Of a DNA stretch of 64,000 bases, positions 657-45,409 are shown one piece after another. Both the position numbers and the translations under genes were made by a program. The notes below the pieces were generated by a model, which was given only the letters and a program-made list of their open reading frames with translations, ran no database searches and was not told the origin of the DNA. This stretch comes from a virus (taxonomy: Duplodnaviria > Caudoviricetes): positions 1-64,000 of IMG/VR virus record IMGVR_UViG_3300010362_000015. One strand, written 5' to 3'. The stretch's first letter is position 1, and every line of letters begins with the position of its first letter.

Positions 657-1517
657 TTAGAGCACCACCACAAACGGGCCGACGGCGTCGCGGGCCGCGG
701 CGTCAACCGAAGCCATACGGGCCGCAACACGGCGGGCTTCGGAGAGCATATCCGCATGCGTCGGCGTCGGCGGGCCGACGGGCGCCACGGCGGGCGCCGA
801 CGCGCGCACCACAAAGGCCGAATCGGCCCCAATTGCGGCGCCTTTGGCTCGGAGCCCCACCACCACGCCGACGGCGTCGGTAAACCGCAAGTCGTGCAAG
901 TCGCCGTCAACCACGCGGTAACCGCGCCATTCTTCGGGCAGTTCATAACCGCGACGCGTATCAAACACCACGGCGACATTCACGCCGTTAGCAAGGGCGC
1001 CCATAGCGTCGGCGTCGTTATGGCCCGTGTATGAGAACGTCAAGTGATAGTTGGGGAGAACGCGTAATTCGGGCCGCGGAATTTTGGTGTAGTCGTAAAA
1101 CTGGACGTTGGGAAATTCGCGCGCCATAGTGCGCGCAATCTGCGGCAAGTCGCTTGTACCGTTGATGCGCACGGCGGGCTTGAGCCCCAATTTCGCGGCC
1201 CGCTTGATCAAGGCGCCGATATCCCACCGAAGCGCGTTCATGAACGCGTCGCGGTTATTGTGCAAGTACAGTGTCTTTGCCATTCGGCCCGCGCGCACGC
1301 TATCGAACCGACCGCGGCCCGCCGTGAATAGGCAAGCCCGACGACATTCTTCGGTGGCCATAGGGCACGTGTTCATTACCCCGGATTCTTCGGCGGGCGC
1401 CAAATAGAGAATGCCCGTCAAATAGCCTAAGGGCTGGCCCTTAGTTGTCTTTGCGTTCTCAACTGCCAATAAGGGCCGATATCCCGTCGGCTTGCGGTTA
1501 CTACGTGAAGTGTTCAT
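657..1517 (-). CDS. GP88-family phage protein (Cys-motif, radical-SAM-like fold suspected)
   Basis: Motifs LYLAPA..NTCPMATEECRRACLFTAGRG, RINGTSD, QFYDYTK, NYHLTFSY and DGDLHDLRF typical of gene-product-88 proteins. Confidence 0.75.
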   Translation of the reverse strand: MNTSRSNRKPTGYRPLLAVENAKTTKGQPLGYLTGILYLAPAEESGVMNTCPMATEECRRACLFTAGRGRFDSVRAGRMAKTLYLHNNRDAFMNALRWDIGALIKRAAKLGLKPAVRINGTSDLPQIARTMAREFPNVQFYDYTKIPRPELRVLPNYHLTFSYTGHNDADAMGALANGVNVAVVFDTRRGYELPEEWRGYRVVDGDLHDLRFTDAVGVVVGLRAKGAAIGADSAFVVRASAPAVAPVGPPTPTHADMLSEARRVAARMASVDAAARDAVGPFVVVL

Positions 1518-1523
1518 GCATTC

Positions 1524-1579
1524 AGCTTAACGGGCCGATTGCGATGCATGCAACTGATTTCGGAATTTTGTGGGTGAAA
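1524..1579 (-). promoter_or_regulatory. Cassette-type leaderless promoter for GP88
   Basis: TTTCACCCA-N17-TTGCAT (overlapping the operator)-N18-TAAGCT-6 nt-ATG. Confidence 0.7.
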
Positions 1580-4355: not shown

Positions 4356-4507
4356 TTGGCCCCCAGTTCGATGAGGTTGTCGCAGGCCAGCTCCAGGTAC
4401 ACCGCGGCGTCGCGCAGCATATCGATGGAGCCCTGCGGCGTCTGGGCGTTGAGCGCGGCCTCGACCGAGGTCTGCAGCTTCGCCACGTTCTCTTTCCACT
4501 TGTCCAC
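4352..4507 (-). CDS. Small helical hypothetical protein
   Basis: 51-aa ORF from GTG with AGGAGA SD, coupled by a GTGA overlap; below the track cut-off. Confidence 0.5.
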   Translation of the reverse strand: MDKWKENVAKLQTSVEAALNAQTPQGSIDMLRDAAVYLELACDNLIELGAK

Positions 4508-4517
4508 GTTGGTTCTC

Positions 4518-4718
4518 CTATTGGTTGATCGGTTGCGGTTTAGCGCCGCCCACGCGGCGCGTTTTCTTCTCCTCGACGCAGGCGGTGCAGCTGATCCGTT
4601 TGCCTAAGAACAGCTGCTGCCGGTCGATGGTCACGCAGGGGCACTCGAAGGAGTGCCCGCAGGCGAGCTTGACGCTCCACTTCAGCCCGAAGCGAAGCAT
4701 GCGGGTAATCTCGGTCAC
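4518..4718 (-). CDS. Small Cys-rich hypothetical protein
   Basis: LACGH..C.C and CTAC motifs. Confidence 0.55.
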   Translation of the reverse strand: MTEITRMLRFGLKWSVKLACGHSFECPCVTIDRQQLFLGKRISCTACVEEKKTRRVGGAKPQPINQ

Positions 4719-4864
4719 TACGAGGCCTCGCCGAACGCGATAGCGTAGATGAACTTGAACATCTCGATCCCGGCCCAGATGAACAGCACCAGCTCGAACA
4801 GCAGCGGCTTGGTGATGTGCAGCGCGTGAGAGATGCCTTGAATCACTTCAGTGAATTTGGTCAT
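4718..4864 (-). CDS. Small membrane protein (48 aa)
   Basis: MTKFTEVIQGISHALHITKPLLFELVLFIWAGIEMFKFIYAIAFGEAS; AAGGA SD; follows a cassette promoter. Confidence 0.55.
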   Translation of the reverse strand: MTKFTEVIQGISHALHITKPLLFELVLFIWAGIEMFKFIYAIAFGEAS

Positions 4865-4892
4865 TTTGTATTTTCGTTTCCTTTATGATTCA

Positions 4893-4936
4893 AGCATCTC
4901 ATCACTTGCATGCATGAAGTCAAGAGATTTCACCCC
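4893..4936 (-). promoter_or_regulatory. Cassette promoter with inverted upstream element
   Basis: GGGGTGAAA-N4-TTGACT-TCATGCATGCAA; the -10 is uncertain. Confidence 0.55.
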
Positions 4937-5166
4937 TGCGTTCTCTTGACGTCGGTGGCGATGAACTCCTGCCCGGCGCTGTTGGCCAGCCGCCCGTTGG
5001 GCAGCTTGCACAGCGTCACGCGGCAGCGAAACATCGGGTTGGGCGCCGCATTGTCGATGGCCACGCCCGCCTCGGACTCCTCGATGACGTAGAACCGCAG
5101 CGGCTGCTGGGATACTACCCCGTCGGTCACGGCGCGCAGATCAATTGCCCGTGGGCCTCGCTTCAT
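4930..5166 (-). CDS. Hypothetical protein
   Basis: ATGA-coupled to the upstream gene; its stop lies inside GGGGTGAAA. Confidence 0.6.
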   Translation of the reverse strand: MKRGPRAIDLRAVTDGVVSQQPLRFYVIEESEAGVAIDNAAPNPMFRCRVTLCKLPNGRLANSAGQEFIATDVKRTQG

Positions 5167-5414
5167 GCGGCCTCCTCCTTCGCAGCGTTCTCTTTCGCGC
5201 GCCGGTCCATGCACTTGTGGCAGCGGCAGCCCGGCCATTTGGGTTTATGCTTGGCCCAGTAGATCCCGCCGGTGTACGACTTGCGCTTCTTCGCATTGCG
5301 GCGGGCCCACTCGCTCTTGAGCGCATCCTCGGGGATGGTGCCCAGGTCCCAGTTTTCGTTGTACGGGCGCAGCTTCACCGCGCCTTCGTCTTGTTTGGTC
5401 ATAGATTCTCCCAT
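5163..5414 (-). CDS. Hypothetical basic protein with CxCxxC
   Basis: ATG 6 nt after the -10; GCRCHKC motif. Confidence 0.6.
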   Translation of the reverse strand: MGESMTKQDEGAVKLRPYNENWDLGTIPEDALKSEWARRNAKKRKSYTGGIYWAKHKPKWPGCRCHKCMDRRAKENAAKEEAA

Positions 5415-5420
5415 ACCTTC

Positions 5421-5465
5421 AGTGTCACAGATACATGTAACTCAGTGCAAGAGGCGTTTCACCCC
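5421..5465 (-). promoter_or_regulatory. Cassette promoter with inverted upstream element
   Basis: GGGGTGAAA-N6-TTGCAC-18 nt containing TTACATGTATC-GACACT-6 nt-ATG. Confidence 0.65.
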
Positions 5466-5467
5466 TC

Positions 5468-5773
5468 CTATTTCAGCTCCATGCGGTTCTGCTTCATGGA
5501 CGCGAGCAGCACCTTGGACGGCGACCAGCCGGTGCCGTGGACATCCACCCCGAACCGGCGGCGGGCGGCGTCGCGGAACTCTGCAACGGTCTGGCCTTCC
5601 CGCATCAGATCGAACACCCGGCCCCGCATTCCGCCCATGTGGCCCGGCGCGGCCAGCAGGTGAATCCGCATCGTGTCGCGGATCTTACGGTGCATTTTCC
5701 GGTGGGCGCTTACCCAGCACTCGTCCATGCGAGTCGTCTTCTTCGTCACCGTATTCTTCGGCCTCTTCTTCAT
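5468..5773 (-). CDS. Hypothetical basic protein
   Basis: MKKRPKNTV start with AGGGAGA SD. Confidence 0.55.
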   Translation of the reverse strand: MKKRPKNTVTKKTTRMDECWVSAHRKMHRKIRDTMRIHLLAAPGHMGGMRGRVFDLMREGQTVAEFRDAARRRFGVDVHGTGWSPSKVLLASMKQNRMELK

Positions 5774-5800
5774 TGCGAATTGTCTCCCTAGATACATGGT

Positions 5801-5826
5801 AAAAGGAGGCGGGCGTTTCACCCGCC
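5801..5826 (-). terminator. Intrinsic terminator after the Zn-finger/OB gene
   Basis: GGCGGG-TGAAACG-CCCGCC followed by TCCTTTT; the loop contains the GGTGAAA element. Confidence 0.55.
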
Positions 5827-5853
5827 ACACATTTCACCCCATGGGGAGGCCCT

Positions 5854-6780
5854 CTAGGCCTCCGGCGTCTTCGGCTTGCGGGCCGTCTTGGCGGGCGCGG
5901 GCGCGTATTCCTTCGCGCCGCCGATCTCGCTGTCCCAGACGTACAGCTTGCCGTCGTCCTCGCGGTACGCCAGCACCTTGGGGCGGGCGATGATCGTCTG
6001 GTTCTCGTCCTTGTAGCTCTCGTGGCCGTCCACCGTCGCCTTCACCAGGACCGTGACGCCAGCGCTGGCGATGTGGCTGCCGCCCTTGTAGACCAGCCGG
6101 TTGCCGTTGTCGTCGCGGAGCAGGTAGATGCTGCGCGGGCCGAAGCAGTAGTGGCGCGTGCCCGAGCAGCCGCAGGGGATCGGGATGATCCGCTCGACGG
6201 TCACGATCACCTCGATGCGCTTGCCGACCTCGGCGACGAACTGGCTGGCGGCGCGCTCGGCGGCCCGGGCTTCCAGGCGGGCGATGGTGTTGCGGGCGGC
6301 CTCGACCTGCTTCTCGCTGAGCTTGCCCGCCTGCTCGAACTTGCGGAGCAGGTCGGCCAGGAACGTGTCGGCGGCCTCGTGCTTGCGCATGCCCTCGACC
6401 ACGTCGCCGTAGGCGGCCAGTGAGTCGGCCTTCACGGCTTCGGCGGCGGCGGCCTCAGCGGCCTGAGCGGCGGCCAGCTTGGCGGCCTGGACGGCGTTGC
6501 GCTTGGCCTGGGCGGCGTTCAGGGCGGCCAGCTTCTCGGCGGTGTAGACCGGCTCGGTGCGGATCGGGCCCTTACCGTTGCCGCGGCAGTCGAAGCAGAC
6601 GCGGCCCGTGAACATCCACTTGTCCGACGCGCCAGCGCCGCCGCAGCGCGAGCAGACATCCTGGTAGGTGTGCTTGGCGGTGCCCTTGGCCTCGTTGGCG
6701 TCGAAGATCCCGCGGGTGACCGGCGAACCGTAGCGGTTGAACCAGCTGCTCTTCGCGTCGCTCATGATTACGTTTTCCAT
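5854..6780 (-). CDS. DnaJ-type Zn finger, coiled coil and C-terminal OB-fold-like protein
   Basis: CSRCGGAG..CFDCRGNG, an Ala-rich coil, then VGKRIEVIVTVER..LLRDDNGNRLVYKG..VKATVDGH..QTIIARP. Confidence 0.7.
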   Translation of the reverse strand: MENVIMSDAKSSWFNRYGSPVTRGIFDANEAKGTAKHTYQDVCSRCGGAGASDKWMFTGRVCFDCRGNGKGPIRTEPVYTAEKLAALNAAQAKRNAVQAAKLAAAQAAEAAAAEAVKADSLAAYGDVVEGMRKHEAADTFLADLLRKFEQAGKLSEKQVEAARNTIARLEARAAERAASQFVAEVGKRIEVIVTVERIIPIPCGCSGTRHYCFGPRSIYLLRDDNGNRLVYKGGSHIASAGVTVLVKATVDGHESYKDENQTIIARPKVLAYREDDGKLYVWDSEIGGAKEYAPAPAKTARKPKTPEA

Positions 6781-6786
6781 GTCCTA

Positions 6787-6831
6787 AGTATGACAAGTTG
6801 CATGCATCTGGTCAACGGGTTTGGGGTGAAA
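6787..6831 (-). promoter_or_regulatory. Cassette promoter
   Basis: TTTCACCCC-N7-TTGACC-17 nt (GATGCATGCAAC)-CATACT-6 nt-ATG. Confidence 0.85.
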
Positions 6832-7045
6832 CCTTCGGCGGCTTGACCACTTCCGGCCCCATCTCGGTGATGACCCGCCGGATCACCTGATAGGCGCTGC
6901 CGCGGAATTCCTTCGACAGCCGCACGGCGTCGGCGCGGGCCTCGCGTTCGCTGGCCCGCCGCTCGCCCTCGTACCACTCCAGCATCTTGCCGTTTTCGTC
7001 CCGGCCACAAACCCGCACGGCCTCATACCATGTGTGCGTCGTCAT
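6812..7045 (-). CDS. Cassette hypothetical protein
   Basis: Ends VSPQTR at the TGA of the next -35 box. Confidence 0.65.
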   Translation of the reverse strand: MTTHTWYEAVRVCGRDENGKMLEWYEGERRASEREARADAVRLSKEFRGSAYQVIRRVITEMGPEVVKPPKVSPQTR

Positions 7046-7398
7046 GCCGCCTCCGGCTCGGGCTCGCGGATTGCGCCGACGGCGTCCGCGGCGCGGTTGA
7101 AGGTGCTGGGCCGCACGCCGTTCTCCCAGGCGTCCCTGATCGGCTTGGCGGGATTCTTCATGCAGGCCGGGCAGCCGTGGCCCCCGATGGTCAGCATCGA
7201 GCCGTCGGCGAAGTCGAAGCGGATCGACATCGGCGTGGAGAGGAAGGACGAGCGCACGGCGTGGAACTCGCCGCAGCCGTGGCAGACCAGAACGTGATCG
7301 TAGGCGTTGAAAGTCCTACCGTCGTCTTCGATCTGGACGAGCCGCTGCTTCAATGCGCTGATCGCGCTCTTTGCTTGGGTGACTGCTGTGTTGTTCAT
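7042..7398 (-). CDS. Cassette hypothetical protein with two CxxC motifs
   Basis: Starts MNNTAV at the promoter-adjacent ATG; CHGC and CPAC. Confidence 0.7.
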   Translation of the reverse strand: MNNTAVTQAKSAISALKQRLVQIEDDGRTFNAYDHVLVCHGCGEFHAVRSSFLSTPMSIRFDFADGSMLTIGGHGCPACMKNPAKPIRDAWENGVRPSTFNRAADAVGAIREPEPEAA

Positions 7399-7404
7399 GA
7401 GTCC

Positions 7405-7449
7405 ATTCTCTCGCGATGCATGCATCTGGTCAAGTACGTTGGGGTGAAA
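7405..7449 (-). promoter_or_regulatory. Cassette promoter
   Basis: TTTCACCCC-N7-TTGACC-17 nt (GATGCATGCATC)-GAGAAT-6 nt-ATG. Confidence 0.85.
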
Positions 7450-7675
7450 TGCGCACGCGCCCGCCGGGCCCGATGTCCTCGGCAGAGGCGCTGGGGGCGC
7501 CCTTGCGTTTGAGCAGGTCCCAGACCTTGTCACGCAGGCCGTTGTAGACCTCGGTGCAGTCCTCGGTCCAGTCGGCGTAGTCGCCCTCGCCCCAAGGGGC
7601 TGCCGCCGCGATAGCGCACATGTCGTTGATGAGCGCCAGCTCAGCGGCGGTGAAGGCGATACGCTTAGTCGGCAT
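7430..7675 (-). CDS. Cassette hypothetical protein
   Basis: MPTKRIAF start; ends ISPQRT at the -35 TGA. Confidence 0.6.
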   Translation of the reverse strand: MPTKRIAFTAAELALINDMCAIAAAAPWGEGDYADWTEDCTEVYNGLRDKVWDLLKRKGAPSASAEDIGPGGRVRISPQRT

Positions 7676-7925
7676 AGGCCTCGTAGTAGCCCAGCTCATG
7701 GAGCTTGTCGCAGGCCGCGGCGCAGGCATGGTAGACCTCGTCGCAAGCCTCGCAGTACAGCTCGTCCTCGTTGCCGGAGGAGATCACGTCCTCGCCGTGC
7801 AGGCCCGCGGGGCACTTGACGCCGAGGAGCAGCTCGGAGGCCTCCAGCAGGCCGTTGAGGAGGTCCTGCCGGTTGTCCAGCAGGGCCTCGATGGTCTTGG
7901 TGTTGATGAATTTGCTGATGTCCAT
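7665..7925 (-). CDS. Cassette hypothetical Cys-rich protein
   Basis: AAGGA SD; C..H..YCEAC motif. Confidence 0.65.
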   Translation of the reverse strand: MDISKFINTKTIEALLDNRQDLLNGLLEASELLLGVKCPAGLHGEDVISSGNEDELYCEACDEVYHACAAACDKLHELGYYEAYAD

Positions 7926-7935
7926 GGTCGTTTCC

Positions 7936-8319
7936 TTAGTCGTAGTAGCCGCAGGCGTAGTCGTAACCGGCGCTGTAGGTGCGGTCCTGCCAGGGATCGA
8001 CGCCCAGCTGGCAATGCATGCAGGTCATGCGCCCGTCGGCCTCCTGGCCGTAGGCGGCGCTGCCGCAGCGCGGGCAATTCTCGGCCTGCCGCTCGGCGGC
8101 GAGCAGTTCCGCGGCCCGCCGCTCGATGGTCTGGAGCCGGATGCCGATTGCGTGGTGGATGTCGCACAGCGCGTTGGCGATCTCGGTATCGTGGACCTCC
8201 TGATGGTTCAGCGTGGCGATCATGCGGATCGAGGCGGAAGCCCGGCGCGTGGGGTTCATGGTGTTCCGGCTGTAGCCCGACGCGGCCAGCTTCTGGATGT
8301 TGAGAAGTGCGTTGTTCAT
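7936..8319 (-). CDS. Cassette Zn-ribbon protein
   Basis: MNNALL start; CPRC..CMHC motif. Confidence 0.7.
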   Translation of the reverse strand: MNNALLNIQKLAASGYSRNTMNPTRRASASIRMIATLNHQEVHDTEIANALCDIHHAIGIRLQTIERRAAELLAAERQAENCPRCGSAAYGQEADGRMTCMHCQLGVDPWQDRTYSAGYDYACGYYD

Positions 8320-8325
8320 GTCCTT

Positions 8326-8371
8326 AGTATGCCGCACATGCATGCATCTGGTCAACTGGCTTGGGGTGAAA
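8326..8371 (-). promoter_or_regulatory. Cassette promoter
   Basis: TTTCACCCC-N7-TTGACC-18 nt (GATGCATGCATG)-CATACT-6 nt-ATG. Confidence 0.85.
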
Positions 8372-8375
8372 CCGT

Positions 8376-8687
8376 TCAGGCGTCTAAGCGCGCCGGGCAA
8401 CTGTCCAGCCGGGCATGCCGCTCACGATAGTAGTCGGGCTTCAGATAGAAGTCGCGGCCAGCCTCGGCGCACAGGCAGTCGCGGCCCTCGGGGTCCATGG
8501 CCAGCGCGTCGGCAGTGATCATCGAGGTCGGGTCGCCGGGCACGCGAATCTTGATGGCGACGTGGTCGCCGAGGATATACGGGTAGCTGATGAATTCCCA
8601 GAAGTCGCCGTTGAGGTCTTTGGCGAGCCGGTGCGGCTTGTGCGTATTTTTCAGGGCGAGCGTTGCGAGCTTTAGATCCAGGTCCAT
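8376..8687 (-). CDS. Cassette hypothetical protein
   Basis: Abuts the upstream stop codon; no family recognised. Confidence 0.65.
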   Translation of the reverse strand: MDLDLKLATLALKNTHKPHRLAKDLNGDFWEFISYPYILGDHVAIKIRVPGDPTSMITADALAMDPEGRDCLCAEAGRDFYLKPDYYRERHARLDSCPARLDA

Positions 8688-8888
8688 CTACTTGCCCTCC
8701 TGCGCCGCGATGTACTGCTTTACCACTCGTCGCGCCTCTTCCATCAAGGCGTCCTCGGGGCATTTCCGCTTGTGGTCGCAATTGGCGAGGTGCGACGCCA
8801 CTAGGTAGTAGAGGACCGCGGCGGTAATCCGCGCCTCCTCGTTGGCCAGGACCTCATCGGCCCTTTCCTTCCAGACGTTCGTCGCCAT
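8688..8888 (-). CDS. Cassette hypothetical protein
   Basis: AGGAGG SD with TAATG coupling. Confidence 0.65.
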   Translation of the reverse strand: MATNVWKERADEVLANEEARITAAVLYYLVASHLANCDHKRKCPEDALMEEARRVVKQYIAAQEGK

Positions 8889-9127
8889 TAGCGGCCTCCT
8901 TTCGCGGCCCGCACTTGGTCGGCGATGTCGCCGGTCGGGGCGATGAACCATACGCCGTGGAACGGCTCGAAGGTGTTGAGCATCGTGGCGCGGCGCCGGG
9001 CGCCCTCGATGGTCTGGTAGCCGAAGGCCTCCGCGGCGTTCGGCGAAACGAAGCCCGCGCCAGCGCGGCCCGTGTAGTAAAGCGTCGCGCCGCTCTTGGT
9101 GCGACCGACGATGGGGAAGAAGTTCAT
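8888..9127 (-). CDS. Cassette hypothetical protein
   Basis: ATG 6 nt after the -10. Confidence 0.7.
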   Translation of the reverse strand: MNFFPIVGRTKSGATLYYTGRAGAGFVSPNAAEAFGYQTIEGARRRATMLNTFEPFHGVWFIAPTGDIADQVRAAKGGR

Positions 9128-9133
9128 GTCTCT

Positions 9134-9179
9134 AGTTTGCCTCGGATGCATGCATCTTGTCAAGTAGTTTGGGGTGAAA
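9134..9179 (-). promoter_or_regulatory. Cassette promoter
   Basis: TTTCACCCC-N7-TTGACA-18 nt (GATGCATGCATC)-CAAACT-6 nt-ATG. Confidence 0.85.
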
Positions 9180-9207
9180 TGGGCCGCCGCGGCGGCCCGG
9201 GCGCAGT

Positions 9208-9579
9208 TCAGCCTGCCCTCTTTTTCACCAGGAACGCGGGCTTCTCGCCGCGGGCCATGCGGTCGGCGGCGGAACGCTTGGCCGACTTGCTGCGGTTTTT
9301 GGAGGTCAGCGATTCCCGTTGCCGGGCGATAGCTTCGGCCACCTGGGGCGGGATCGCGATGCGGATCGCGCCCTCGGCCCCGATGGTTTCGAGAAAGATC
9401 GTGTCGCCCTTGTCCGTCTGCCGGTAGGTCTGCACGATGTAGCTGCGCGCGATGCCGATCAGGGGCATCATGGCGCGGATGGTGGACGGCTTCGACTTGA
9501 CTACGTCGGGCAGCCCTTCGAGCGCCCCGACCAGCCGGTCGAATTCGCTCACAGTGGTAATTGCGTTGTCGTTGCTCAT
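9208..9579 (-). CDS. Cassette hypothetical protein with basic C-terminus
   Basis: GAGG SD; clean ORF. Confidence 0.7.
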   Translation of the reverse strand: MSNDNAITTVSEFDRLVGALEGLPDVVKSKPSTIRAMMPLIGIARSYIVQTYRQTDKGDTIFLETIGAEGAIRIAIPPQVAEAIARQRESLTSKNRSKSAKRSAADRMARGEKPAFLVKKRAG

Positions 9580-9597
9580 TGGTTTACCTCAAACTCG

Positions 9598-9789
9598 TTA
9601 TCGCGGGCCCCGCTTCCTGGCTTCGCGCTCGCGCTTGCGCTCGATCAGCTCGTCGTAGGCCTTTGCCGAGGCCTCCAGCCGCGGCAGGCCCGCGGCCTCC
9701 AGTTCGGCCATGCGGGCCGCATGCCACGCCAGGGCATTCCGCGCGTAGCGCTCGCGCGTCTTGTAGTCGCGGTTGCTGCCGAGGGCCAT
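9598..9789 (-). CDS. Cassette hypothetical protein
   Basis: TAATG coupling. Confidence 0.6.
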   Translation of the reverse strand: MALGSNRDYKTRERYARNALAWHAARMAELEAAGLPRLEASAKAYDELIERKREREARKRGPR

Positions 9790-10097
9790 TAGCGCACCTC
9801 CACGCCGCGCACGAGCGAGGTATAGGAGTTGACGTCCTCGGGCCGCACCGGCTCGACGGTGGCGCGCATGTCGGCGACGCCGGGCCGCGCGGCGATCCAG
9901 CGTTCGGCGCCCGCGCGCGTCTTCCAGTACTTGACCTGCGAGACTTCGTTCTCGGTGTACCAGACGCCGTCCCAGGTGCCCGCGCCGTCGTTCTTCGCGA
10001 CCCAGGCGTTGCGCTCGAACTCGGGGCCGTACTGCCGGGCGATGATCACGCGGATTCGGTAGACCGGCTTGGTTTCGATTACTGCTGTGTTGTTCAT
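9789..10097 (-). CDS. Cassette hypothetical protein
   Basis: Starts MNNTAV, with the first 17 nt identical to the 7398 gene. Confidence 0.7.
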   Translation of the reverse strand: MNNTAVIETKPVYRIRVIIARQYGPEFERNAWVAKNDGAGTWDGVWYTENEVSQVKYWKTRAGAERWIAARPGVADMRATVEPVRPEDVNSYTSLVRGVEVR

Positions 10098-10104
10098 ATT
10101 TCCT

Positions 10105-10149
10105 ATTCTGCCTGATGCATGCATCTGCGTCAAGAGGCTTGGGGTGAAT
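10105..10149 (-). promoter_or_regulatory. Cassette promoter
   Basis: TTCACCCC-N7-TTGACG-17 nt (GATGCATGCATC)-CAGAAT-7 nt-ATG. Confidence 0.85.
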
Positions 10150-10357
10150 TCTTCCAGGCCCAATCGCGCAGCCGGTCGGCGGCGTCGTTGCGGCGCTCGC
10201 CTTCGAGTTGCAGCAGCGTGCTCTCGCCGGGCCGGTTGGGATGCACCAGGACGTCGGCGACGGCGAGCGGCAGATTCTTGCCGCGGTAGCCGAGCGCCCG
10301 CGCGCCGCGGCGCAGGTGCTGGTCGGTGATGTCGCGCTCGGGCCGGGGCCGCCTCAT
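10130..10357 (-). CDS. Cassette hypothetical protein
   Basis: Ends NSPQAS at the -35 TGA. Confidence 0.55.
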   Translation of the reverse strand: MRRPRPERDITDQHLRRGARALGYRGKNLPLAVADVLVHPNRPGESTLLQLEGERRNDAADRLRDWAWKNSPQAS

Positions 10358-10614
10358 ACGTGGGCCGCCACGGCGTCAGCCAGCCTCTTCAGGCCGTCGA
10401 GCACGGTCGCGAGATGCTCCAGCCGCTCGGCGTGCTGGTTGGTCGCCTGGATGAAAGCGCCGGGGCCCTGCGGGTAGTAGTCCCGCGCGTTGGGGCCGTT
10501 CTCGGCGAGTACGCTGATCGCCTCGCGCACGGCGTTCATCGATTTGATGTAGCCGTCCAGCAGGTCACTGGCGGCGGTGCCGTTCAGGTGGATCGAGGGG
10601 GTAATGAGTGCCAT
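10354..10614 (-). CDS. Cassette hypothetical protein
   Basis: PSIHLNGT..PNARDYYPQG..QH.ERL motif, a recurrent small phage ORF type. Confidence 0.7.
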   Translation of the reverse strand: MALITPSIHLNGTAASDLLDGYIKSMNAVREAISVLAENGPNARDYYPQGPGAFIQATNQHAERLEHLATVLDGLKRLADAVAAHV

Positions 10615-10616
10615 GG

Positions 10617-10808
10617 TTAGTTGCCTTTCTCGGCCAGCTCCTCGAAGAGCCGGTCCAGTTCATCGTTCTGACGACGCCGGATGATCCGCTTGGTCGCCCG
10701 CCCGCAGCAGCCGCATTCCCATACCGGGCGCCCTTCGGCGTCCACGGTCGCAGTGTGCCGGGTCTGGCATCCGCAAGCTCCGTTGCACTGGCGTTTCGTC
10801 GTCTTCAT
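10617..10808 (-). CDS. Cassette Zn-finger mini-protein
   Basis: CNGAC..CGCC motif; ATG 7 nt after the -10. Confidence 0.65.
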   Translation of the reverse strand: MKTTKRQCNGACGCQTRHTATVDAEGRPVWECGCCGRATKRIIRRRQNDELDRLFEELAEKGN

Positions 10809-10815
10809 ACTTCCT

Positions 10816-10861
10816 ATTGTGCCGGATGCATGCATCTGCCGTCAACGGGTATGGGGTGAAA
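10816..10861 (-). promoter_or_regulatory. Cassette promoter
   Basis: TTTCACCCC-N7-TTGACG-18 nt (GATGCATGCATC)-CACAAT-7 nt-ATG. Confidence 0.85.
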
Positions 10862-11126
10862 CGCGCTCGCGCCTCGCAAAATACTGCTTGATCATCTCGT
10901 CCTCCGACCGCTCGCGCTCCAGCTCGTTCCAGACCTCGCGCAGCAGGCGCCCGATGCTGCGGCCATAGGGCAGCAGGTCGATGCGGTCCAGCTCGGCCAC
11001 GAGGTCGGGGTCGTCAATGCAGCCCATGACGCCGAGGGCCGAGGCCTTGAAGGCCTCCCAAGTCGTCGGGCCGTTCTTGCGCGCGACCACCATCAGGCGG
11101 AACTTGATGCGCTGGCGGGCGGTCAT
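10842..11126 (-). CDS. Cassette hypothetical protein
   Basis: Ends VSPHTR at the -35 TGA. Confidence 0.65.
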   Translation of the reverse strand: MTARQRIKFRLMVVARKNGPTTWEAFKASALGVMGCIDDPDLVAELDRIDLLPYGRSIGRLLREVWNELERERSEDEMIKQYFARRERVSPHTR

Positions 11127-11127
11127 G

Positions 11128-11319
11128 TTAGCTCACCCTTCCCATCAGCTTCAGGGCCCAGCGGGCGGCCAGCCGTGCGCAGCGACCGGCCTCAGCCGGG
11201 TTGTTGTCGCGAACGTGAAACTCGACCGCGTGGCCCCAGGCGGCAGCCTCGCCGCGGGCGTACTGCGTGTACTCCCGGTCCAGCATGTCTTTGCGCTCGG
11301 ATTTGATCAGCTTCTTCAT
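11128..11319 (-). CDS. Cassette hypothetical protein
   Basis: ATG 7 nt after the -10. Confidence 0.65.
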   Translation of the reverse strand: MKKLIKSERKDMLDREYTQYARGEAAAWGHAVEFHVRDNNPAEAGRCARLAARWALKLMGRVS

Positions 11320-11326
11320 ACTCACT

Positions 11327-11371
11327 ATCCTACCGGATGCATGCATCTGAGTCAATTGGTTTCAGGTGAAA
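11327..11371 (-). promoter_or_regulatory. Cassette promoter
   Basis: TTTCACCTG-N7-TTGACT-17 nt (GATGCATGCATC)-TAGGAT-7 nt-ATG. Confidence 0.85.
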
Positions 11372-11588
11372 TCTTTGCGAGCGCCGCCAGGGCCTCGGTC
11401 TTGGTCTTGAAGCGTCCATACTCGGGGGCCTCGACCCAGCCGCGCACCGGCGAGATCGGATCTTCGGGCCGCACGAGCGACGAGTCCCAGCGGGCGATGC
11501 CCCAGCTGGCTGCGGTGCGCCGCGCGTAGCTGCGCTGGGAGTGGAAGGCCGTGAGGCGGCGGCTGCCGTAGTTGCGGACGGAGAGCAT
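11352..11588 (-). CDS. Cassette hypothetical protein
   Basis: TAATG coupling; ends ISPETN at the -35 TGA. Confidence 0.65.
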   Translation of the reverse strand: MLSVRNYGSRRLTAFHSQRSYARRTAASWGIARWDSSLVRPEDPISPVRGWVEAPEYGRFKTKTEALAALAKISPETN

Positions 11589-11824
11589 TAGCGCACCTCC
11601 GCGGGCGTCATCCAGGCCCGCCGGGTAGCTACGCTCTTCAGCATCTGGCGCACGGTCGAGGCGCTGTGGATGTGGCGGCTGCCGGTGGGATATTCGAGCG
11701 TGACCAGAGAGCCGCCGGTGACCACGGTCGCGACCTCGAAGGCCTCAGTGTTGCGGTTCCAGTATTCAATCTTCATACCGGCCTCGAACTTCCGCGTGTG
11801 CTGAGTGACTGCTTTGTTCATCAT
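11588..11824 (-). CDS. Cassette hypothetical protein (SH3-like beta fold possible)
   Basis: MMNKAVTQ start resembling MNNTAVTQ. Confidence 0.65.
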   Translation of the reverse strand: MMNKAVTQHTRKFEAGMKIEYWNRNTEAFEVATVVTGGSLVTLEYPTGSRHIHSASTVRQMLKSVATRRAWMTPAEVR

Positions 11825-11831
11825 GTCTCTA

Positions 11832-11877
11832 ATCTTATCTGATGCATGCATCTGGAGTCAACGAGCAATGGGTGAAA
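11832..11877 (-). promoter_or_regulatory. Cassette promoter
   Basis: TTTCACCCA-N7-TTGACT-18 nt (GATGCATGCATC)-TAAGAT-7 nt-ATG. Confidence 0.85.
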
Positions 11878-12127
11878 CGCGCCGGGCCTCGCGGCGTTCC
11901 TGCTCCGCGGCCAGCACCTCCTCCTGCCCGTAGATCAGAGCCAGGATGGTGATGCGGCGCTTGTAGTAGAGGCCGAGCCAGCCCTGCGCGGCGACCTTGC
12001 CGTTGCGGTCGTAGAGCCAGCCGCCGTTCATACCGTTGGCGCTGATCTCGACCTTCGCTGCGTACCACTTGGCGAGGCGCACGCGCGCCTCGCTCCAGGG
12101 ATCTTGCCAGCACTTGGGAGTCTTCAC
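11858..12127 (-). CDS. Cassette hypothetical protein
   Basis: Ends VSPIAR at the -35 TGA. Confidence 0.65.
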   Translation of the reverse strand: MKTPKCWQDPWSEARVRLAKWYAAKVEISANGMNGGWLYDRNGKVAAQGWLGLYYKRRITILALIYGQEEVLAAEQERREARRVSPIAR

Positions 12128-12411
12128 TTACTTATCCTCCTTTGCACGCGGTAGCGGGCGACGATCTCGGCCCGGCGGGCGTGATCCTTCAGGGCGTCGG
12201 CCTCAGTGAGGTAGTAAACCCGGCGGCCCCTGGAGTCCTTATCCGGCCCCAGTTCGGCGAACATCCGGGTGCAGTGCAGGCAGCGCCATACCTTGTCATG
12301 CGTGACGCCGATCTCGGTCCCGGTCTTCAGGGCCGTCTTGCATTGCGGGCACTGTGAGTCAAACTTTGCCTTGATGGTTCGGATCTCGGCGGGCTTCATT
12401 GTCGTTTCCAT
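12124..12411 (-). CDS. Cassette Zn-finger protein
   Basis: AKFDSQCPQCK..WRCLHC motif. Confidence 0.7.
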   Translation of the reverse strand: METTMKPAEIRTIKAKFDSQCPQCKTALKTGTEIGVTHDKVWRCLHCTRMFAELGPDKDSRGRRVYYLTEADALKDHARRAEIVARYRVQRRISK

Positions 12412-12417
12412 GTTCTT

Positions 12418-12462
12418 AGTTTGCCAGATGCATGCATCTCACGCAAGGGGGAAGGGGTGAAA
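12418..12462 (-). promoter_or_regulatory. Cassette promoter
   Basis: TTTCACCCC-N7-TTGCGT-17 nt (GATGCATGCATC)-CAAACT-6 nt-ATG; an upstream GGGGTGA forms an inverted repeat with the element. Confidence 0.85.
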
Positions 12463-12465
12463 TGC

Positions 12466-12702
12466 TCACCCCTGTGTCAGCCGCATGTGGCGCCGCGTCA
12501 GCCGCGGATGCCGCCGGAGCCGGTGGCCCTGGCTCATGTTGGTCAGCTGCTCGGCGACGCATGCGACGCGGAACCGCATGGGCGTGTGATGCGCCGCGGT
12601 GGCGTCCAGGGCCGCCGACATCGGCGAGCGCCCGTCGGTTTCGTCGCGGGCGGCCCGGCGCGCAGCGCCCCAGGCCAGATGGAATAATTCTCGTGTCGTC
12701 AT
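12466..12702 (-). CDS. Cassette hypothetical protein
   Basis: AAAGAA SD-like sequence; MTTRELF start. Confidence 0.55.
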   Translation of the reverse strand: MTTRELFHLAWGAARRAARDETDGRSPMSAALDATAAHHTPMRFRVACVAEQLTNMSQGHRLRRHPRLTRRHMRLTQG

Positions 12703-12716
12703 GTTCGTTCTTTCCT

Positions 12717-12980
12717 TTACCCTTTGAGGGCCGCCTCCGCGGCGGCCCGGTTGGTGCGCTTCCACTGCCCGTTCTGCATGAGGTAGAAGGTCGCGCGGAA
12801 GTGTTCCCGCTTGGGCATCGTGCGTGCGGTCACCGGAACCACATAAGCCTGGACGACGCCGTTGTCGGCGCTGCCTCTCTTCCAGCAAGCCTGAAACGTG
12901 CTGCCGTCTTCCCGGGTAACGGTGCGGATCTCCAGGGCCTTCGCGATTGCCGCGTCGATCAGTTGTTCTAACGTGTTCAT
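12717..12980 (-). CDS. Cassette hypothetical protein
   Basis: ATG 6 nt after the -10. Confidence 0.7.
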   Translation of the reverse strand: MNTLEQLIDAAIAKALEIRTVTREDGSTFQACWKRGSADNGVVQAYVVPVTARTMPKREHFRATFYLMQNGQWKRTNRAAAEAALKG

Positions 12981-12986
12981 GACTTA

Positions 12987-13031
12987 AGTATGCCAGATGC
13001 ATGTATCTGGAGCAAGGGGCTTGGGGTGAAA
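12987..13031 (-). promoter_or_regulatory. First cassette promoter of the array
   Basis: TTTCACCCC-N7-TTGCTC-17 nt (GATACATGCATC)-CATACT-6 nt-ATG. Confidence 0.85.
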
Positions 13032-13033
13032 TG

Positions 13034-13062
13034 CAAAAAAAGAGGGGCCCATTGCGGGCCCC
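13034..13062 (-). terminator. Intrinsic terminator insulating the cassette array
   Basis: GGGGCCC-GCAAT-GGGCCCC then TCTTTTTTT, immediately upstream of the first promoter. Confidence 0.8.
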
Positions 13063-14367: not shown

Positions 14368-14972
14368 AGCTCGGGGATCGACCACTGAACGTGATGAACG
14401 ATCTCTTTGCATGTCTTCAACTCCCGAATCAGCGCCCCTGCGATTTTCATACGCCGGTTCAGGCTGCGCCAATCGGGGCTTCTCCGATACGCCTCATCCT
14501 CCATGCGCGAGTATTCGATGCGAACGCCAGCCATATTGCGTGCAGTCCACTGTTTTGCCCCGCTATACGGACCCATCAATCCCGGCCCGATGATGATGCC
14601 ATGTTGTGGCCGCTCGGCCTGCCAGATGGAGAAGTCCGCGAACACGCGGTCGGCGACCGCGATCAGATGGCCGTTCCACCTGCCGACGGTTGATCCGACC
14701 GGAGGATGACCGAATCCGATCCCGATGCTATAGGAGCCGTCAACGCTGATCCACTTGCGGAGGTCGTAGTCGCCCTCGTCGATATGCATCGCGAACGCGC
14801 GGTTGTAGATCGCCACTTGGCAGGCGACGGGTTGAACCTCGATGCCAAAATATCGCGCGACTTCCATGGCGACGCGCACGCCGAACACGCACAGGTCGCG
14901 CCGCTTCAGGTTCGTTTCAATCGCCGGGCCGATCCGCGGGACGAGCTGCTGGAAGAGTTCCGCGGCGGTCAC
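14364..14972 (-). CDS. Hypothetical protein (transglutaminase-like C/H/D triad possible)
   Basis: DLCV..WNGHLIAV..FADFS spacing. Confidence 0.6.
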   Translation of the reverse strand: MTAAELFQQLVPRIGPAIETNLKRRDLCVFGVRVAMEVARYFGIEVQPVACQVAIYNRAFAMHIDEGDYDLRKWISVDGSYSIGIGFGHPPVGSTVGRWNGHLIAVADRVFADFSIWQAERPQHGIIIGPGLMGPYSGAKQWTARNMAGVRIEYSRMEDEAYRRSPDWRSLNRRMKIAGALIRELKTCKEIVHHVQWSIPEL

Positions 14973-15466
14973 TCTCCGGCCTCCGTCTCGTAGATCACCT
15001 CAGCATAGGCGAAGCGCACAAGCCGGATCTTCTTGCCCATGGCGCTGGCTTGCGCCTCGAAGCGCTCCGCGAAGGGCTCGACCTTGCCGCGCTTGACCGC
15101 CACGATGGGAATGTAGCCCGCCGGGCAGAGGCCTTGCTTGATGCCCCATTCGCCGGTGCGTTGAGTGCGGTCGGGCTGATCGTCCTGGCCGATCCAGGCG
15201 TATAGCTCCATGTTCTTAATCCGTTCGGGTATGCGGTTCACGATCATTTCCTTGTCGATCACTCCCAGGTCTGTCGCCGCCCGCAACAAATCTTTCAGGT
15301 CATGCGCATCGAATTTTTCGTACAGGTGATACCAGTGGTTCCTCACGCTCTGAGAAGTTGTGCGCAGACGGCCTGCGATCTGCCGGGCGTTTCTTCCTGC
15401 GGCCAGCAGCTTGAGAATATCCAGCTCACGCGGAGTGAGGTGCGGCGGCTTTGCGGGCCCTGTCAC
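14969..15466 (-). CDS. LuxR/GerE-type HTH protein with C-terminal unknown domain
   Basis: LTPRELDILKLLAAGRNARQIAGRLRTTSQSVRNHWYHLYEKF. Confidence 0.8.
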   Translation of the reverse strand: MTGPAKPPHLTPRELDILKLLAAGRNARQIAGRLRTTSQSVRNHWYHLYEKFDAHDLKDLLRAATDLGVIDKEMIVNRIPERIKNMELYAWIGQDDQPDRTQRTGEWGIKQGLCPAGYIPIVAVKRGKVEPFAERFEAQASAMGKKIRLVRFAYAEVIYETEAGE

Positions 15467-18225: not shown

Positions 18226-19155
18226 TCAAATCTTGACCTCCACATCGCGTTCCTTCACGATCTTCTTGCCGCGGTTGCCGCGCACGGTCATGGGCGACCA
18301 GACCAACGTGTTGTATTTCCCGAACAGGCCTGCACCTTGTCTGTAGTCCCTGAAATGCCCGCGGCAGATATGCAGCGCGCGTGCGAGCCCGACCTTGTCG
18401 GAGCCGCCCTCACGCTTGAGAATCTGCTTGAGCGGCTCGATTACGAGCGTCTTGTAGCCCGACGGGCTCGCGCCCCCGTGCCGCTCGCGATAGCGCTTCA
18501 CCAGCTTCGCGTCGGGCTGGTTGTCGATCACGCGCACATTCTTACAGTGCAGGAACGAGATCGCCAGGAAGGTCGGGTTGAGATAAGTGATGTGCGCCTT
18601 GAGGATCTCATCGTGCAGCCCGCCGGTGTAGGTCTGTATCCATGGCCGCTCGATGATCGCGCCGTTCTCATCCACCATGAGAAAGACCGAGCCATGCGGC
18701 CCGTCGGCGACGATATCGCGCCTGATCCGGTAGTCGATGAAATACTCGCACCATAAGATCCACTTGCATGTATCAGGTGCGGCCTTGTCGGCGACGATCT
18801 GGCCCTGAGGATCGAGGGCGGATACGAGCACGCCCATGCGCCCGCCCGCGAAGTGGTCGGAGATATCCGTCAGCCCCTTCTCTTTCGAATAAACGTGGTT
18901 GGGCAGCGGATGCTCGAACCAGCACTGCGTCCACGGCGGCGCGAGGTTGGGCATGTCGGTGCGCAGATCCCAATACTCCTGATCGCTCTGGAAGAAATAC
19001 TCCGCGATGTTGGCGATATGGATCACCGGCATATCGGCCTGCAGGAAGTCGAGCACCTTCTGCGCGTACCGCTCCCACACGTCTTCCATGCTGGGCGCGA
19101 TGAACCACGGCATGCGCACCGGGCCGCGGCGAAGATCATCGAGGAAGCGGGCCAT
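18226..19155 (-). CDS. Hypothetical protein, paralog B of a tandem pair
   Basis: NLAPPW..FLHCKNV..HICRGHF..GLFGK shared with 19159-20094. Confidence 0.75.
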   Translation of the reverse strand: MARFLDDLRRGPVRMPWFIAPSMEDVWERYAQKVLDFLQADMPVIHIANIAEYFFQSDQEYWDLRTDMPNLAPPWTQCWFEHPLPNHVYSKEKGLTDISDHFAGGRMGVLVSALDPQGQIVADKAAPDTCKWILWCEYFIDYRIRRDIVADGPHGSVFLMVDENGAIIERPWIQTYTGGLHDEILKAHITYLNPTFLAISFLHCKNVRVIDNQPDAKLVKRYRERHGGASPSGYKTLVIEPLKQILKREGGSDKVGLARALHICRGHFRDYRQGAGLFGKYNTLVWSPMTVRGNRGKKIVKERDVEVKI

Positions 19156-19158
19156 ATG

Positions 19159-20094
19159 TCAGATGCGTACTTTGATCTCGGGCGGCGTTGCCTTGGCGCC
19201 TTCTGCCTTCGAGCCGCGGACGTGCATCGGCTGCCAGTAGATCCCGTGGTGTTTGCCGAATAAGCCCGGGCCCTCGCGGAAATCCATGAAGTGTCCGCGG
19301 CAGATGTGCAGCGCCTTCTGCAGGCCGATCTCGCCCGACCGGCCCTCCTTCTCCAGGATGCCCTTTAATGGTTCGATTACGAGCGTCTTGTATGGAGCCG
19401 GGCTCACGCCGCCATGGCGTTCGCGATAGCGCTTCGCCAGCTTGGGATCGGCGGTGTGATCGATAATTCGCACGTTCTTGCAATGCAGGAAGCATAGCGT
19501 TAGCAGAACAGGATTGAGCGACAGCTGTAGAGCTGCGCTCTCGCCAGGAACGGGCTTATCGCCGTAGGACGCCTGAAACCATCCGACCGGGCGCCCTTCT
19601 TTGCTTATGTCAACATAGATCGGAGGCGTTGGCCCCAATGGCTTCCAGCTGCGAACACCCCTGATCTGATAGCTCTCGCCGAAACTTAGGCAGAGTTCAC
19701 ACTGGAGAATCCATCTGGTTTCAGCGGACGGAGCTTGAGTTTCTGCGTAGTGGCCAACGAGAGCAGCGGGGTCAAGCGCTGTTATCAGAAAGCCGAAACG
19801 GGAGCGGGGACTTGCTACTGGTAGAAATTTACCCCAAGGCGGCTTGCGGAACTCGGCCCAAAACTGCGTGTAAGGTGGGGCGAGGTTCGGGAAGTCGCGC
19901 ACAATATCCCACTTGATTTCTTCGCCGCCATAAATATAGTCGGCTATATTGTCGATCAGAAATATTGGCAGATCGCCCATCAAGGCAGTGGTGAAGCTTT
20001 CCCGGGCCTTGAGCCAGTGCGGCGATGTCACCGGAACGGACTCGGGCCTTTCCAATCTGCTATCGGCGCGCAGATCATCGATGAACCGGCTCAT
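19159..20094 (-). CDS. Hypothetical protein, paralog A of a tandem pair
   Basis: NLAPPY..FLHCKNV..HICRGHF..GLFGK. Confidence 0.75.
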   Translation of the reverse strand: MSRFIDDLRADSRLERPESVPVTSPHWLKARESFTTALMGDLPIFLIDNIADYIYGGEEIKWDIVRDFPNLAPPYTQFWAEFRKPPWGKFLPVASPRSRFGFLITALDPAALVGHYAETQAPSAETRWILQCELCLSFGESYQIRGVRSWKPLGPTPPIYVDISKEGRPVGWFQASYGDKPVPGESAALQLSLNPVLLTLCFLHCKNVRIIDHTADPKLAKRYRERHGGVSPAPYKTLVIEPLKGILEKEGRSGEIGLQKALHICRGHFMDFREGPGLFGKHHGIYWQPMHVRGSKAEGAKATPPEIKVRI

Positions 20095-20101: not shown

Positions 20102-20428
20102 TCACGCCGCGGTCGAGCGCTTCTGCGGCTCTTGCAGCTCGGCCCTGGTCGGCATTCGATACAGCGACGGGTCGAGCCACGTCGTCAGCGGCGCGTAGAC
20201 GTTCTTGCGCGTGATGCTGGTGTGGCCGAACTGCTCCCAGGCCTCGACGCCCGCGCGCGTCGCGTGGAAGCCCTTGCCCGGCCTGTATGCGACCCAGCCT
20301 CGGATCAACATGCTCCTGAGCGGCCTCTGGTCGTAGCGCGCCGCATCTACGACGGGCATGTACCAGTTGGTGCCGTTCTGCGCGAAGATCTTGAGCATCG
20401 GGTGCTGCCGGTTGCTGAGGTTGATCAT
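20102..20428 (-). CDS. Winged-helix-like hypothetical protein
   Basis: LRSMLIRGWVAY..FHATRAG.EA wing motif. Confidence 0.55.
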   Translation of the reverse strand: MINLSNRQHPMLKIFAQNGTNWYMPVVDAARYDQRPLRSMLIRGWVAYRPGKGFHATRAGVEAWEQFGHTSITRKNVYAPLTTWLDPSLYRMPTRAELQEPQKRSTAA

Positions 20429-25839: not shown

Positions 25840-26219
25840 GAGCGCGCTTCTCCTCCTGCTCGCGTTTTCGCCGCCGTTGAATGCGCAGCAGCGCTTCGAC
25901 CAGATCGCGCGCGTTCTGCTCGGCCTGGGGGCTTGGCTCCGCGCCGGTGATCGTCCCCTTCAGTAACGGCTGCTTGGACGACGCCCGCCCAGGTGGCTTC
26001 CTGGCCATCAGCGATAGCCTCCACGGCGGCGAGCTTGGCCTTGAGCACCGGGGCCGCGTAGTGGGCGCAGATGCGCAGCGCCTCGACGGGATCGTCGGTC
26101 CTGGTATTGAGCTGCAGTACGTCGCCCCTGAGGTCGCGGTAGATCGCCCAGTAAACGACGCCTCGTTTGTGTATCGACCCGGCCCGAAACGGCAGCCGCG
26201 TCTGAATGGGTTTCTTCAT
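25836..26219 (-). CDS. Stand-alone Arm-type DNA-binding-like protein upstream of the integrase
   Basis: GSIHKRGVVYWAIYRD..NTRTDD..EA resembles the three-stranded arm-binding domain of tyrosine integrases. Confidence 0.55.
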   Translation of the reverse strand: MKKPIQTRLPFRAGSIHKRGVVYWAIYRDLRGDVLQLNTRTDDPVEALRICAHYAAPVLKAKLAAVEAIADGQEATWAGVVQAAVTEGDDHRRGAKPPGRAERARSGRSAAAHSTAAKTRAGGEARS

Positions 26220-26225
26220 GTCTCG

Positions 26226-45076: not shown

Positions 45077-45082
45077 ATTTTC

Positions 45083-45403: not shown

Positions 45404-45409
45404 ATTCAA

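Follow-up and report, generated by a model that had tools for sequence, protein, structure and literature searches.

A repeated promoter-like module with a putative shared operator heads small ORFan cassettes in an uncultivated phage genome

The window analyzed here (bases 1–64000 of a 73,592-bp IMG/VR virus record) comes from an uncultivated phage and contains an array of small ORFan genes in which a composite module of ~55–60 bp recurs in front of successive gene cassettes. The modules were built like complete sigma-70-type promoters that share an operator, as an earlier note on this DNA had indicated. We consider it probable that they constitute a multi-promoter regulon, in which standardized leaderless promoters under one phage-specific dimeric repressor head a hyperplastic ORFan array. 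The repeat statistics, the geometry, the conservation pattern and the cassette variability on which this proposal is built were observed directly.

Module statistics and promoter geometry

The module consisted of an upstream element (TTTCACCCC, at about -52 to -44), N7, a TTGAC-type -35 hexamer, a 17–18-nt spacer containing GATGCATGCATC, a -10 hexamer, 6–7 nt and the ATG. The -10 hexamer had the form (c/t)AnA(a/c)T, in which A2 and T6 were kept. The putative operator in the spacer was a 12–16-bp palindrome with a GCATGC core and arms specific to the window phage. In its extended form it is readable as a 7-2-7 inverted repeat, which we take to be the kind that NarL-type dimers bind.

The module is a real and highly non-random feature. 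With up to one mismatch, TTTCACCCC occurred 25 times, compared with 9.4 ± 2.8 times in shuffled sequences (0 of 100 shuffles reached 25), and GATRCATGCATC (up to two mismatches) occurred 39 times against 11.9 ± 5.0. A composite regular expression identified 12 full modules. All were minus-strand copies; ten lay at 6778–13031 and the others at 45074–45127 and 45401–45455. The operator site (up to one mismatch) was found 16 times in the 73.6-kb genome and 0 times in the reversed control, and in 12 modules it lay within the spacer. An nhmmer profile hidden Markov model (HMM) built from 27 modules additionally matched 26211–26272, which has no palindrome, and, weakly, 4885–4926. In anchored alignments, the similarity started exactly at TTTCACCCC and faded a few codons past the ATG. 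The modules, the terminators and the cassette open reading frames (ORFs; GC3 denotes GC content at third codon positions) were as follows.

12978–13031, minus strand: module 1, spanning TTTCACCCC from its first T through the ATG, with the operator variant GATACATGCATC; nhmmer E 1e-11
12409–12462, minus strand: module 2, extended palindrome AGATGCATGCATCT; -35 TTGCGT
11822–11877, minus strand: module 3, found by regular expression, nhmmer and promoter scan
11317–11371, minus strand: module 4, degenerate upstream element (TTTCACCTG)
10806–10861, minus strand: module 5, found by regular expression, nhmmer and promoter scan
10095–10149, minus strand: module 6, first six codons the same as in module 9
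9125–9179, minus strand: module 7, found by regular expression and nhmmer
8317–8371, minus strand: module 8, found by regular expression, nhmmer and promoter scan
7396–7449, minus strand: module 9, ATG at 7398–7396
6778–6831, minus strand: module 10, heading a 308-aa gene that is the first post-module gene in three genomes
45401–45455, minus strand: canonical module between tail-region genes, heading a 91-aa ORFan
45074–45127, minus strand: canonical module heading ORFans of 68 and 63 aa
26217–26270, minus strand: operator-less module (upstream element, TTGAGG, 17 nt, TAATTT, 6 nt, ATG; nhmmer E 2e-8) heading a 127-aa ORF and then the serine recombinase gene
5412–5465, minus strand: variant module (inverted upstream element GGGGTGAAA, N6, TTGCAC, 18-nt spacer, GACACT, 6 nt, ATG); spacer palindrome degenerate, still a good leaderless promoter by its geometry
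4862–4936, minus strand: degenerate variant (GGGGTGAAA, N4, TTGACT, ATGCATGCA, poor -10; nhmmer E 0.026) with a ~30-nt leader, heading a 48-aa hydrophobic ORF
1515–1579, minus strand: variant module, palindrome overlapping the -35 (TTGCAT) and upstream element 17 nt away, heading a GP88-family gene at 1517 that is leaderless by geometry
348–359, no strand assigned: orphan perfect operator with no downstream ORF, in a repeat-rich non-coding stretch
13034–13062, minus strand: intrinsic terminator, 8-bp stem (7 GC pairs), 3-nt loop, T7 tail
5808–5826, minus strand: intrinsic terminator closing the ten-promoter unit, with GGGTGAAAC in its loop
5854–12980, minus strand: 23 cassette ORFs of 63–308 aa, GC3 0.74–0.96

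The earlier note had counted 12 copies between 4893 and 13031. Ten of them were canonical, and the other two were variants with the inverted upstream element. The four copies that it had placed outside the array were all real, one with the operator over the -35 (1515–1579), one lacking the operator (26217–26270) and two canonical ones at 45 kb. Around the orphan operator, the non-coding stretch at 250–520 contained direct repeats of 15–28 nt such as GGCTTCGGTGGTGGG (two copies), and a strong hairpin terminator followed them at 445–476. This stretch may be a packaging, origin or regulatory region.

The geometry was nearly constant among the 31 modules of six genomes. The spacer between -35 and -10 was 17 nt long in 21 of them and 18 nt in 10, and the distance from the -10 to the ATG was 6 nt in 26 and 7 nt in 5. 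At this distance, transcription is expected to begin (+1) on the A of the ATG, and the first cassette genes are thus predicted to be read from leaderless mRNAs. An independent sigma-70 consensus scan passed seven of the ten array modules, compared with 2.4 sites in shuffles. In front of the ten first ORFs, the -10 occupied the position of the ribosome-binding site and no Shine-Dalgarno site was present, whereas ~11 of the 13 internal ORFs were preceded by GGAGG-like Shine-Dalgarno sites. This indicated that the host uses Shine-Dalgarno initiation and that leaderless initiation would come from the module itself. In 15 of the 31 modules, a reading frame of at least 40 codons terminated on the TGA within the -35 TTGAC. 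The modules had no match in Rfam and folded no better as RNA than shuffled sequences (z ~0). The reading as an RNA element was rejected on these grounds, and a DNA-level site is favored.

The only minus-strand terminators in the array stretch were those at 13034–13062 and 5808–5826, besides a marginal 5-bp stem at 9055–9068. The former, already recognized in the earlier note and confirmed here, ends the upstream recombination/replication operon and insulates the array. Since terminators stood at its ends alone, the array is a single bracketed unit of ten promoters and 23 ORFs. The modules headed, in order, 2, 2, 2, 2, 3, 3, 3, 3, 2 and 1 ORFs, in agreement with the one to three ORFs per module described before, and the cassette ORFs were short and unrelated as stated there, and were ORFans. 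That many of them carry zinc-binding motifs was overstated; two or more CxxC-type pairs were present in 6 of the 23. Pfam and PHROG scans of the 23 array ORFs and of those behind the 45-kb modules were empty or below the cut-off and gave no functional assignment, and the last array gene (308 aa) matched only PHROGs of unknown function. Because no array ORF matched any family, the anti-defense or host-takeover role proposed for the array is a guess.

The module in related phages and the exchange of cassettes

Related IMG/VR contigs were retrieved by a portal-based search. A scan with the module HMM, of the kind suggested in the earlier note, found the module in related phages with differing cassette content and order, and some homology breakpoints lay at the module, an outcome in favor of the note. 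G001, a complete relative of 70,797 bp that has terminal repeats, lacked the palindrome of the window and had the same architecture at least five times with a different spacer sequence. In G002, G003, and G005, pattern and HMM scans revealed modules with a 16-bp palindrome of the AAACnGCATGCnGTTT type. The metagenome contig L099 carried five modules with the G001-type operator, L013 and L117 held single copies, of which the one on L117 was partial and was all that a search via a conserved 202-aa protein added. The operator was of the AACTGCATGCGGACG type in G001 and L099 and was GATGCATGCATC in the window phage; across six genomes, three types of palindrome arms surrounded a common GCATGC core. 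G007, a more distant complete phage, contained TTTCACCCC-N6-7-TTGACA six times; the spacer repeat there was unrelated, and the leaders were ordinary. The upstream 9-mer and the promoter hexamers were kept across the relatives, as were the GCATGC center and the leaderless start except in G007.

Within one genome the operator arms were uniform and the adjacent N7 positions variable, and between genomes the arms differed. Uniform arms beside variable N7 positions point to selection by a specific DNA-binding protein, and not homogenization by gene conversion, as the force that keeps the arms alike. In G001, the serine recombinase gene was headed by a module variant with an inverted upstream element and an operator-like spacer (L018:19569–19607, which is G001 39569–39607); the corresponding operon of the window phage has the operator-less module. 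A 195-aa protein with Cys/His motifs was 89% identical between G003 and G007 (L084:2750–3337 and L078:18501–19091), which had few other genes in common. This suggests a recent exchange between two lineages that both use the TTTCACCCC promoter element.

Compared with G001, G002, G003, and G007, most structural genes were 50–82% identical and collinear. About one third of the ~30 ORFs at 4500–13000 had homologues in these genomes, and their order differed. Between L099 and G001, ~78% nucleotide identity extended across the gene upstream of the array and the first module. The homology stopped ~25 nt past the ATG of that module, and beyond this point the modules alone matched. Among G002, G003, and G005, one small gene was located before a module in two genomes and after a module in the third, and one ORF that was present in G002 and absent from G005 lay directly beside a module. 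Modules 6 and 9 shared their first six codons and their proteins were otherwise unrelated, which indicated that the duplicated unit extends into the coding sequence. A YqaJ-type exonuclease was also encoded by the phage. Probably, the modules also serve as junctions for the gain, loss and exchange of cassettes, and the comparison lends partial support to this.

The 73,592-bp record was rated 100% complete by CheckV, had a GC content of ~63%, and carried almost all of its genes on the minus strand. Recognizable genes encoded a lambda-family portal, an S49 protease, a large serine recombinase (24148–25839), the YqaJ-type exonuclease, a plus-strand AraC-family regulator and a GP88-family protein. 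Judged by this gene content (the large serine recombinase), the phage is temperate. Megablast searches with the array and with 20 kb of the window found no match among 50,697 phage records, and the best portal matches among these deposited genomes were below 40% identity. The exact full module was not found in IMG/VR or JGI metagenome contigs. Among one-genome-per-species prokaryote contigs, the sole portal match (66% identity) was on a 24-kb contig of a Terracidiphilus sp. metagenome-assembled genome (MAG). With this single contig as the basis, Acidobacteriota are a possible host, as a lead only.

Several other features of the record were observed. Its ends (1–11 and 73581–73591) carried the same 11 bases (CTGCGGCCACC), and the record was labeled "linear"; the shared bases suggest a circular or permuted assembly and not true ends. 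An ORF of 2,706 aa (61141–64000 of the window, continuing to 69261 of the record) lay between the terminase and portal regions with a GC content that was partly 0.54–0.60, and it had a segment of ~95 aa in common (47% identity) with a 1,525-aa ORF at 35437–40014. Outside the window, a repetitive Pro/Gly-rich ORF of 281 aa with PPGGPPVVGGGPVYP-type repeats was located at 69859–70704 of the record, upstream of the large terminase gene. Two tandem paralogues at 18226–19155 (309 aa) and 19159–20094 (311 aa) were 40% identical; their family was kept in G001, G003, and G007, and its single match was PHROG 20769, of unknown function.

Candidate regulators and alternative explanations

In the proposed regulon, the module would be a complete standardized expression unit composed of upstream element, sigma-70-type promoter, spacer operator and leaderless start. 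The ten tandem units, with no intervening terminator, would make one terminator-bounded transcription unit for the 23 small ORFan genes. Most likely, a single phage-encoded dimeric protein would bind the palindrome between the hexamers and shut all 12–14 operator-bearing promoters, which makes the "one switch" of the earlier note plausible. The relatives kept the scaffold and carried other arms, as would be expected if repressor and operator specificities co-diverge in a heteroimmunity-like manner. As the sole sequence common to otherwise unrelated cassettes, the modules would act as exchange junctions. Promoter activity, leaderless initiation and repression we infer from the architecture, together with a recombination mechanism that is as hypothetical as the anti-defense function.

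Three candidate operator-binding proteins were encoded in the window.

14969–15466, minus strand: LuxR/GerE-type helix-turn-helix (HTH) protein, 165 aa, N-terminal HTH, Pfam GerE 2e-11
20102–20428, minus strand: DNA-binding protein, 108 aa, predicted winged helix, kept in G001
34052–35059, plus strand: AraC-family regulator, Pfam HTH_18 2e-13 and AraC_binding_2, 42% identity in G001

The first candidate resembled NarL/GerE/EsrB DNA-binding domains. It had no homologue in the relatives compared and just two partial homologues overall, and its AlphaFold2 (AF2) model was poor (pLDDT 54) and hence not used. For the second, the core of the AF2 model had a pLDDT of 83–91, and the top Foldseek matches were MntR/MarR/DtxR winged-helix domains (E 0.05–0.3). 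Its predicted recognition helix was nearly invariant in the alignment, so a conserved target, namely the GCATGC core or the 9-mer, would fit better than the variable arms. The AraC-family gene was opposite in strand to nearly all other called genes, and the two-HTH domain of its product fits a 12–16-bp palindrome poorly. In G001, a small HTH_3 protein adjoined the AraC gene, and no counterpart was found in the window phage, in which no CI-like repressor was recognized either. In G003, the first post-module ORF (74 aa, L084:6833–7057) had a sub-threshold winged-helix match (HTH_45, E 0.17), and it is possible that this is a regulator encoded inside a cassette.

The 740-bp intergenic region at 33310–34051 separated the plus-strand AraC-type gene from the recombination/replication operon and contained a promoter with a long leader; it is probably the lysis-lysogeny control region. 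The promoter of the operon, at ~33415–33450 (TTGACA, 17 nt, TATATT), had neither the upstream element nor the operator.

Several points weigh against the regulon as proposed. Three proteins compete as candidates for the repressor, and a classical CI/Cro-type HTH was found in the relative G001 alone. As the main early promoter lacks the module elements, the protein that binds the operator may differ from the lysogeny repressor and may instead be a dedicated regulator of this regulon. The proposal offers no explanation for a GCATGC core that is kept across specificity types, and it deduces promoter activity and leaderless starts from geometry. The earlier note had further assumed that genes are gained, lost and swapped by recombination between modules. 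Homology that broke off at a module was in keeping with this, but several breakpoints in content between relatives lay at ordinary gene junctions, and the longest exact match between any two modules of the window was 13–18 nt, a poor substrate for ongoing homologous exchange. No relative with more than 85% identity to the window phage was found in three collections, so recent exchange events cannot be mapped.

The array occupied accessory DNA that separates the late genes from the recombination/replication operon, and it lay downstream of this operon, which has a different, module-free promoter. Delayed-early timing is therefore equally possible, and the array, called early in the note, could be delayed-early rather than immediate-early. 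This leads to the strongest alternative, to which we give a clearly lower probability: the modules would be activator-dependent middle (delayed-early) promoters, at which a phage activator from the early operon binds TTTCACCCC and the palindrome serves for fine-tuning or later shut-off. Such promoters would agree with the position of the array directly after the terminator of an early operon that has its own consensus promoter, with -10 hexamers that mostly start with C or G and not T, and with an upstream element that occurs in both orientations and at different distances, like activator sites. However, the near-consensus -35 and optimal spacing do not obviously need activation, and the integrase operon employs the same scaffold.

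The question of what reads TTTCACCCC bears on the same alternative. The combination TTTCACCCC-N6-7-TTGAC was at background level in the Terracidiphilus MAG with the closest portal gene, and it showed no enrichment across 401 genomes from the candidate host family (12 matches vs. 19 in the reversed control), among which no prophage with modules was seen. A general promoter element of this candidate host group was rejected for this reason, which favors an activator of the phage. On the other hand, no phage protein was common to all module-bearing genomes, and the 195-aa and 309-aa proteins, which G007 also has, were encoded on module-free contigs too. The 195-aa protein, with its zinc motifs, was rejected as the reader because the contigs of its homologues (L112–L114) had no modules within 10 kb. 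The candidates for the reader are a phage-encoded activator, a specialized host factor and RNA polymerase itself.

It is unlikely that the prophage expresses the cassettes as moron-like lysogenic-conversion genes, with a palindrome that serves autoregulation or a host regulator and not control of the lytic cycle. The phage is temperate by gene content and has a large serine recombinase, and self-contained units were found at varied places (the terminase-portal gap of G002, G003, and G005, the tail genes of the window and the accessory arrays). However, there were no terminators between cassettes, and the ORFs showed nothing that suggests host-benefit functions. A host regulator common to these phages would be expected to keep one site, and yet the arms, uniform within a genome, differed from one phage to its relatives. 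That the modules function first of all in site-specific recombination (as integron-attC-like or serine-recombinase pseudo-att sites), with a secondary likeness to promoters, is very improbable: each module has a palindrome, the cassettes have an integron-like layout and a serine recombinase is encoded at 24148–25839, but the fixed order of -35, 17–18 nt, -10, 6–7 nt and ATG in 31 of 31 copies reflects the need of a promoter and not of a crossover site, the palindrome is just 12–16 bp, the recombinase gene is 11 kb distant and has an operator-less module in front of it, an integron-type tyrosine integrase was not found among the proteins scanned, and the arms differ between relatives although G001 has its own large recombinase gene (583 aa).

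Beyond the repressor-controlled regulon that we prefer, we tentatively speculate that a unit of ~70 bp, consisting of the module and the first approximately six codons, is itself mobile. As a plug-and-play cassette, it might give any captured ORF transcription, translation and common regulation at once, and it might spread even between otherwise unrelated phages of one host, as in G007. The arms would be re-specified in each lineage around GCATGC, and a factor would recognize TTTCACCCC whichever way it points.

The module is a compact natural case of standardized viral parts, which brings together promoter, common regulation and translation start in ~55–60 bp, and it occurs in a phage lineage that has no cultured member and is essentially unstudied. 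With this system one can ask what builds up the accessory (ORFan) regions of phages and renews their content, how repressors and operators come to differ in specificity when the core stays the same, and why the first cassette genes would be leaderless when internal genes use Shine-Dalgarno sites. The 23 ORFans, which are predicted to be co-regulated, provide a candidate list for host-takeover and counter-defense screens.

Comparison with known systems

Integron cassettes are promoterless, end in attC, and depend on an IntI-type tyrosine integrase with attI. In the window phage, every cassette had its own promoter, no tyrosine integrase was found among the proteins scanned, and the palindrome was confined to 12–16 bp. 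The nin-type regions of lambdoid phages and morons contain small non-essential genes between the replication and late genes that are highly mosaic; some have their own promoter, and morons usually carry their own terminator. The array likewise consisted of small mosaic genes between replication and late genes. Unlike the array, nin-type and moron regions are not known to have a shared standardized promoter or operator.

A looser likeness was found to the start-associated sequences (SAS/ESAS) of Cluster K mycobacteriophages. The SAS is a 13-bp motif near the ribosome-binding position, 3–8 bp before the start codon, and it is often preceded by 17-bp inverted repeats that differ slightly between subclusters (PMC3203893). 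In both systems, a subset of genes has a conserved motif directly in front of the start codon. However, the start-proximal part of the window module is a -10 hexamer at leaderless distance, its palindrome lies in the promoter spacer, and there is no sequence similarity.

The C1 operators of P1, the conserved inverted repeats of phiC31 and the stoperators of L5 and other Cluster A phages are dispersed repressor operators of temperate phages. The window operator resembles them in that one short site occurs 12–16 times per genome, is uniform within it and diverges between heteroimmune relatives. Such repetition of one uniform site argues for one protein that controls many transcription units. The stoperators are asymmetric, lie inside transcribed regions and block elongation (PMC9283540, PMC6550527). 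In contrast, the window site is palindromic and fixed between the -35 and -10 of a standardized promoter.

The closest functional match is the promoter-early stem-loop (PeSL) of T4-type phages (PMC2839356, PMC4122927). This repeated motif joins an early promoter to a terminator stem-loop, has AT-rich DNA upstream and marks both ORFan cassettes and their points of exchange, and excised mini-circles form by exchange between its copies. Both are repeated composite motifs around a sigma-70-like promoter (in the window, a TTGAC-type -35 with a 17–18-nt spacer), and both are concentrated in hyperplastic, ORFan-rich regions. PeSLs lie at junctions of insertion, deletion or replacement between related phages; among the phages compared here, there was one clear case of such a breakpoint (L099 vs. 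G001) and one indel abutting a module (G002 vs. G005), and the others lay at gene junctions. The window array differed in having no internal stem-loop and, instead, a GC-rich 9-mer, a spacer operator and a leaderless start. The phage lineage is also unrelated and temperate, and the identity between modules is much lower. Since the stem-loop terminator is absent and an operator and a leaderless start are added, the window module appears PeSL-like but is not a PeSL. Thus, the system of the window phage would combine PeSL-like cassettes with dispersed operators.

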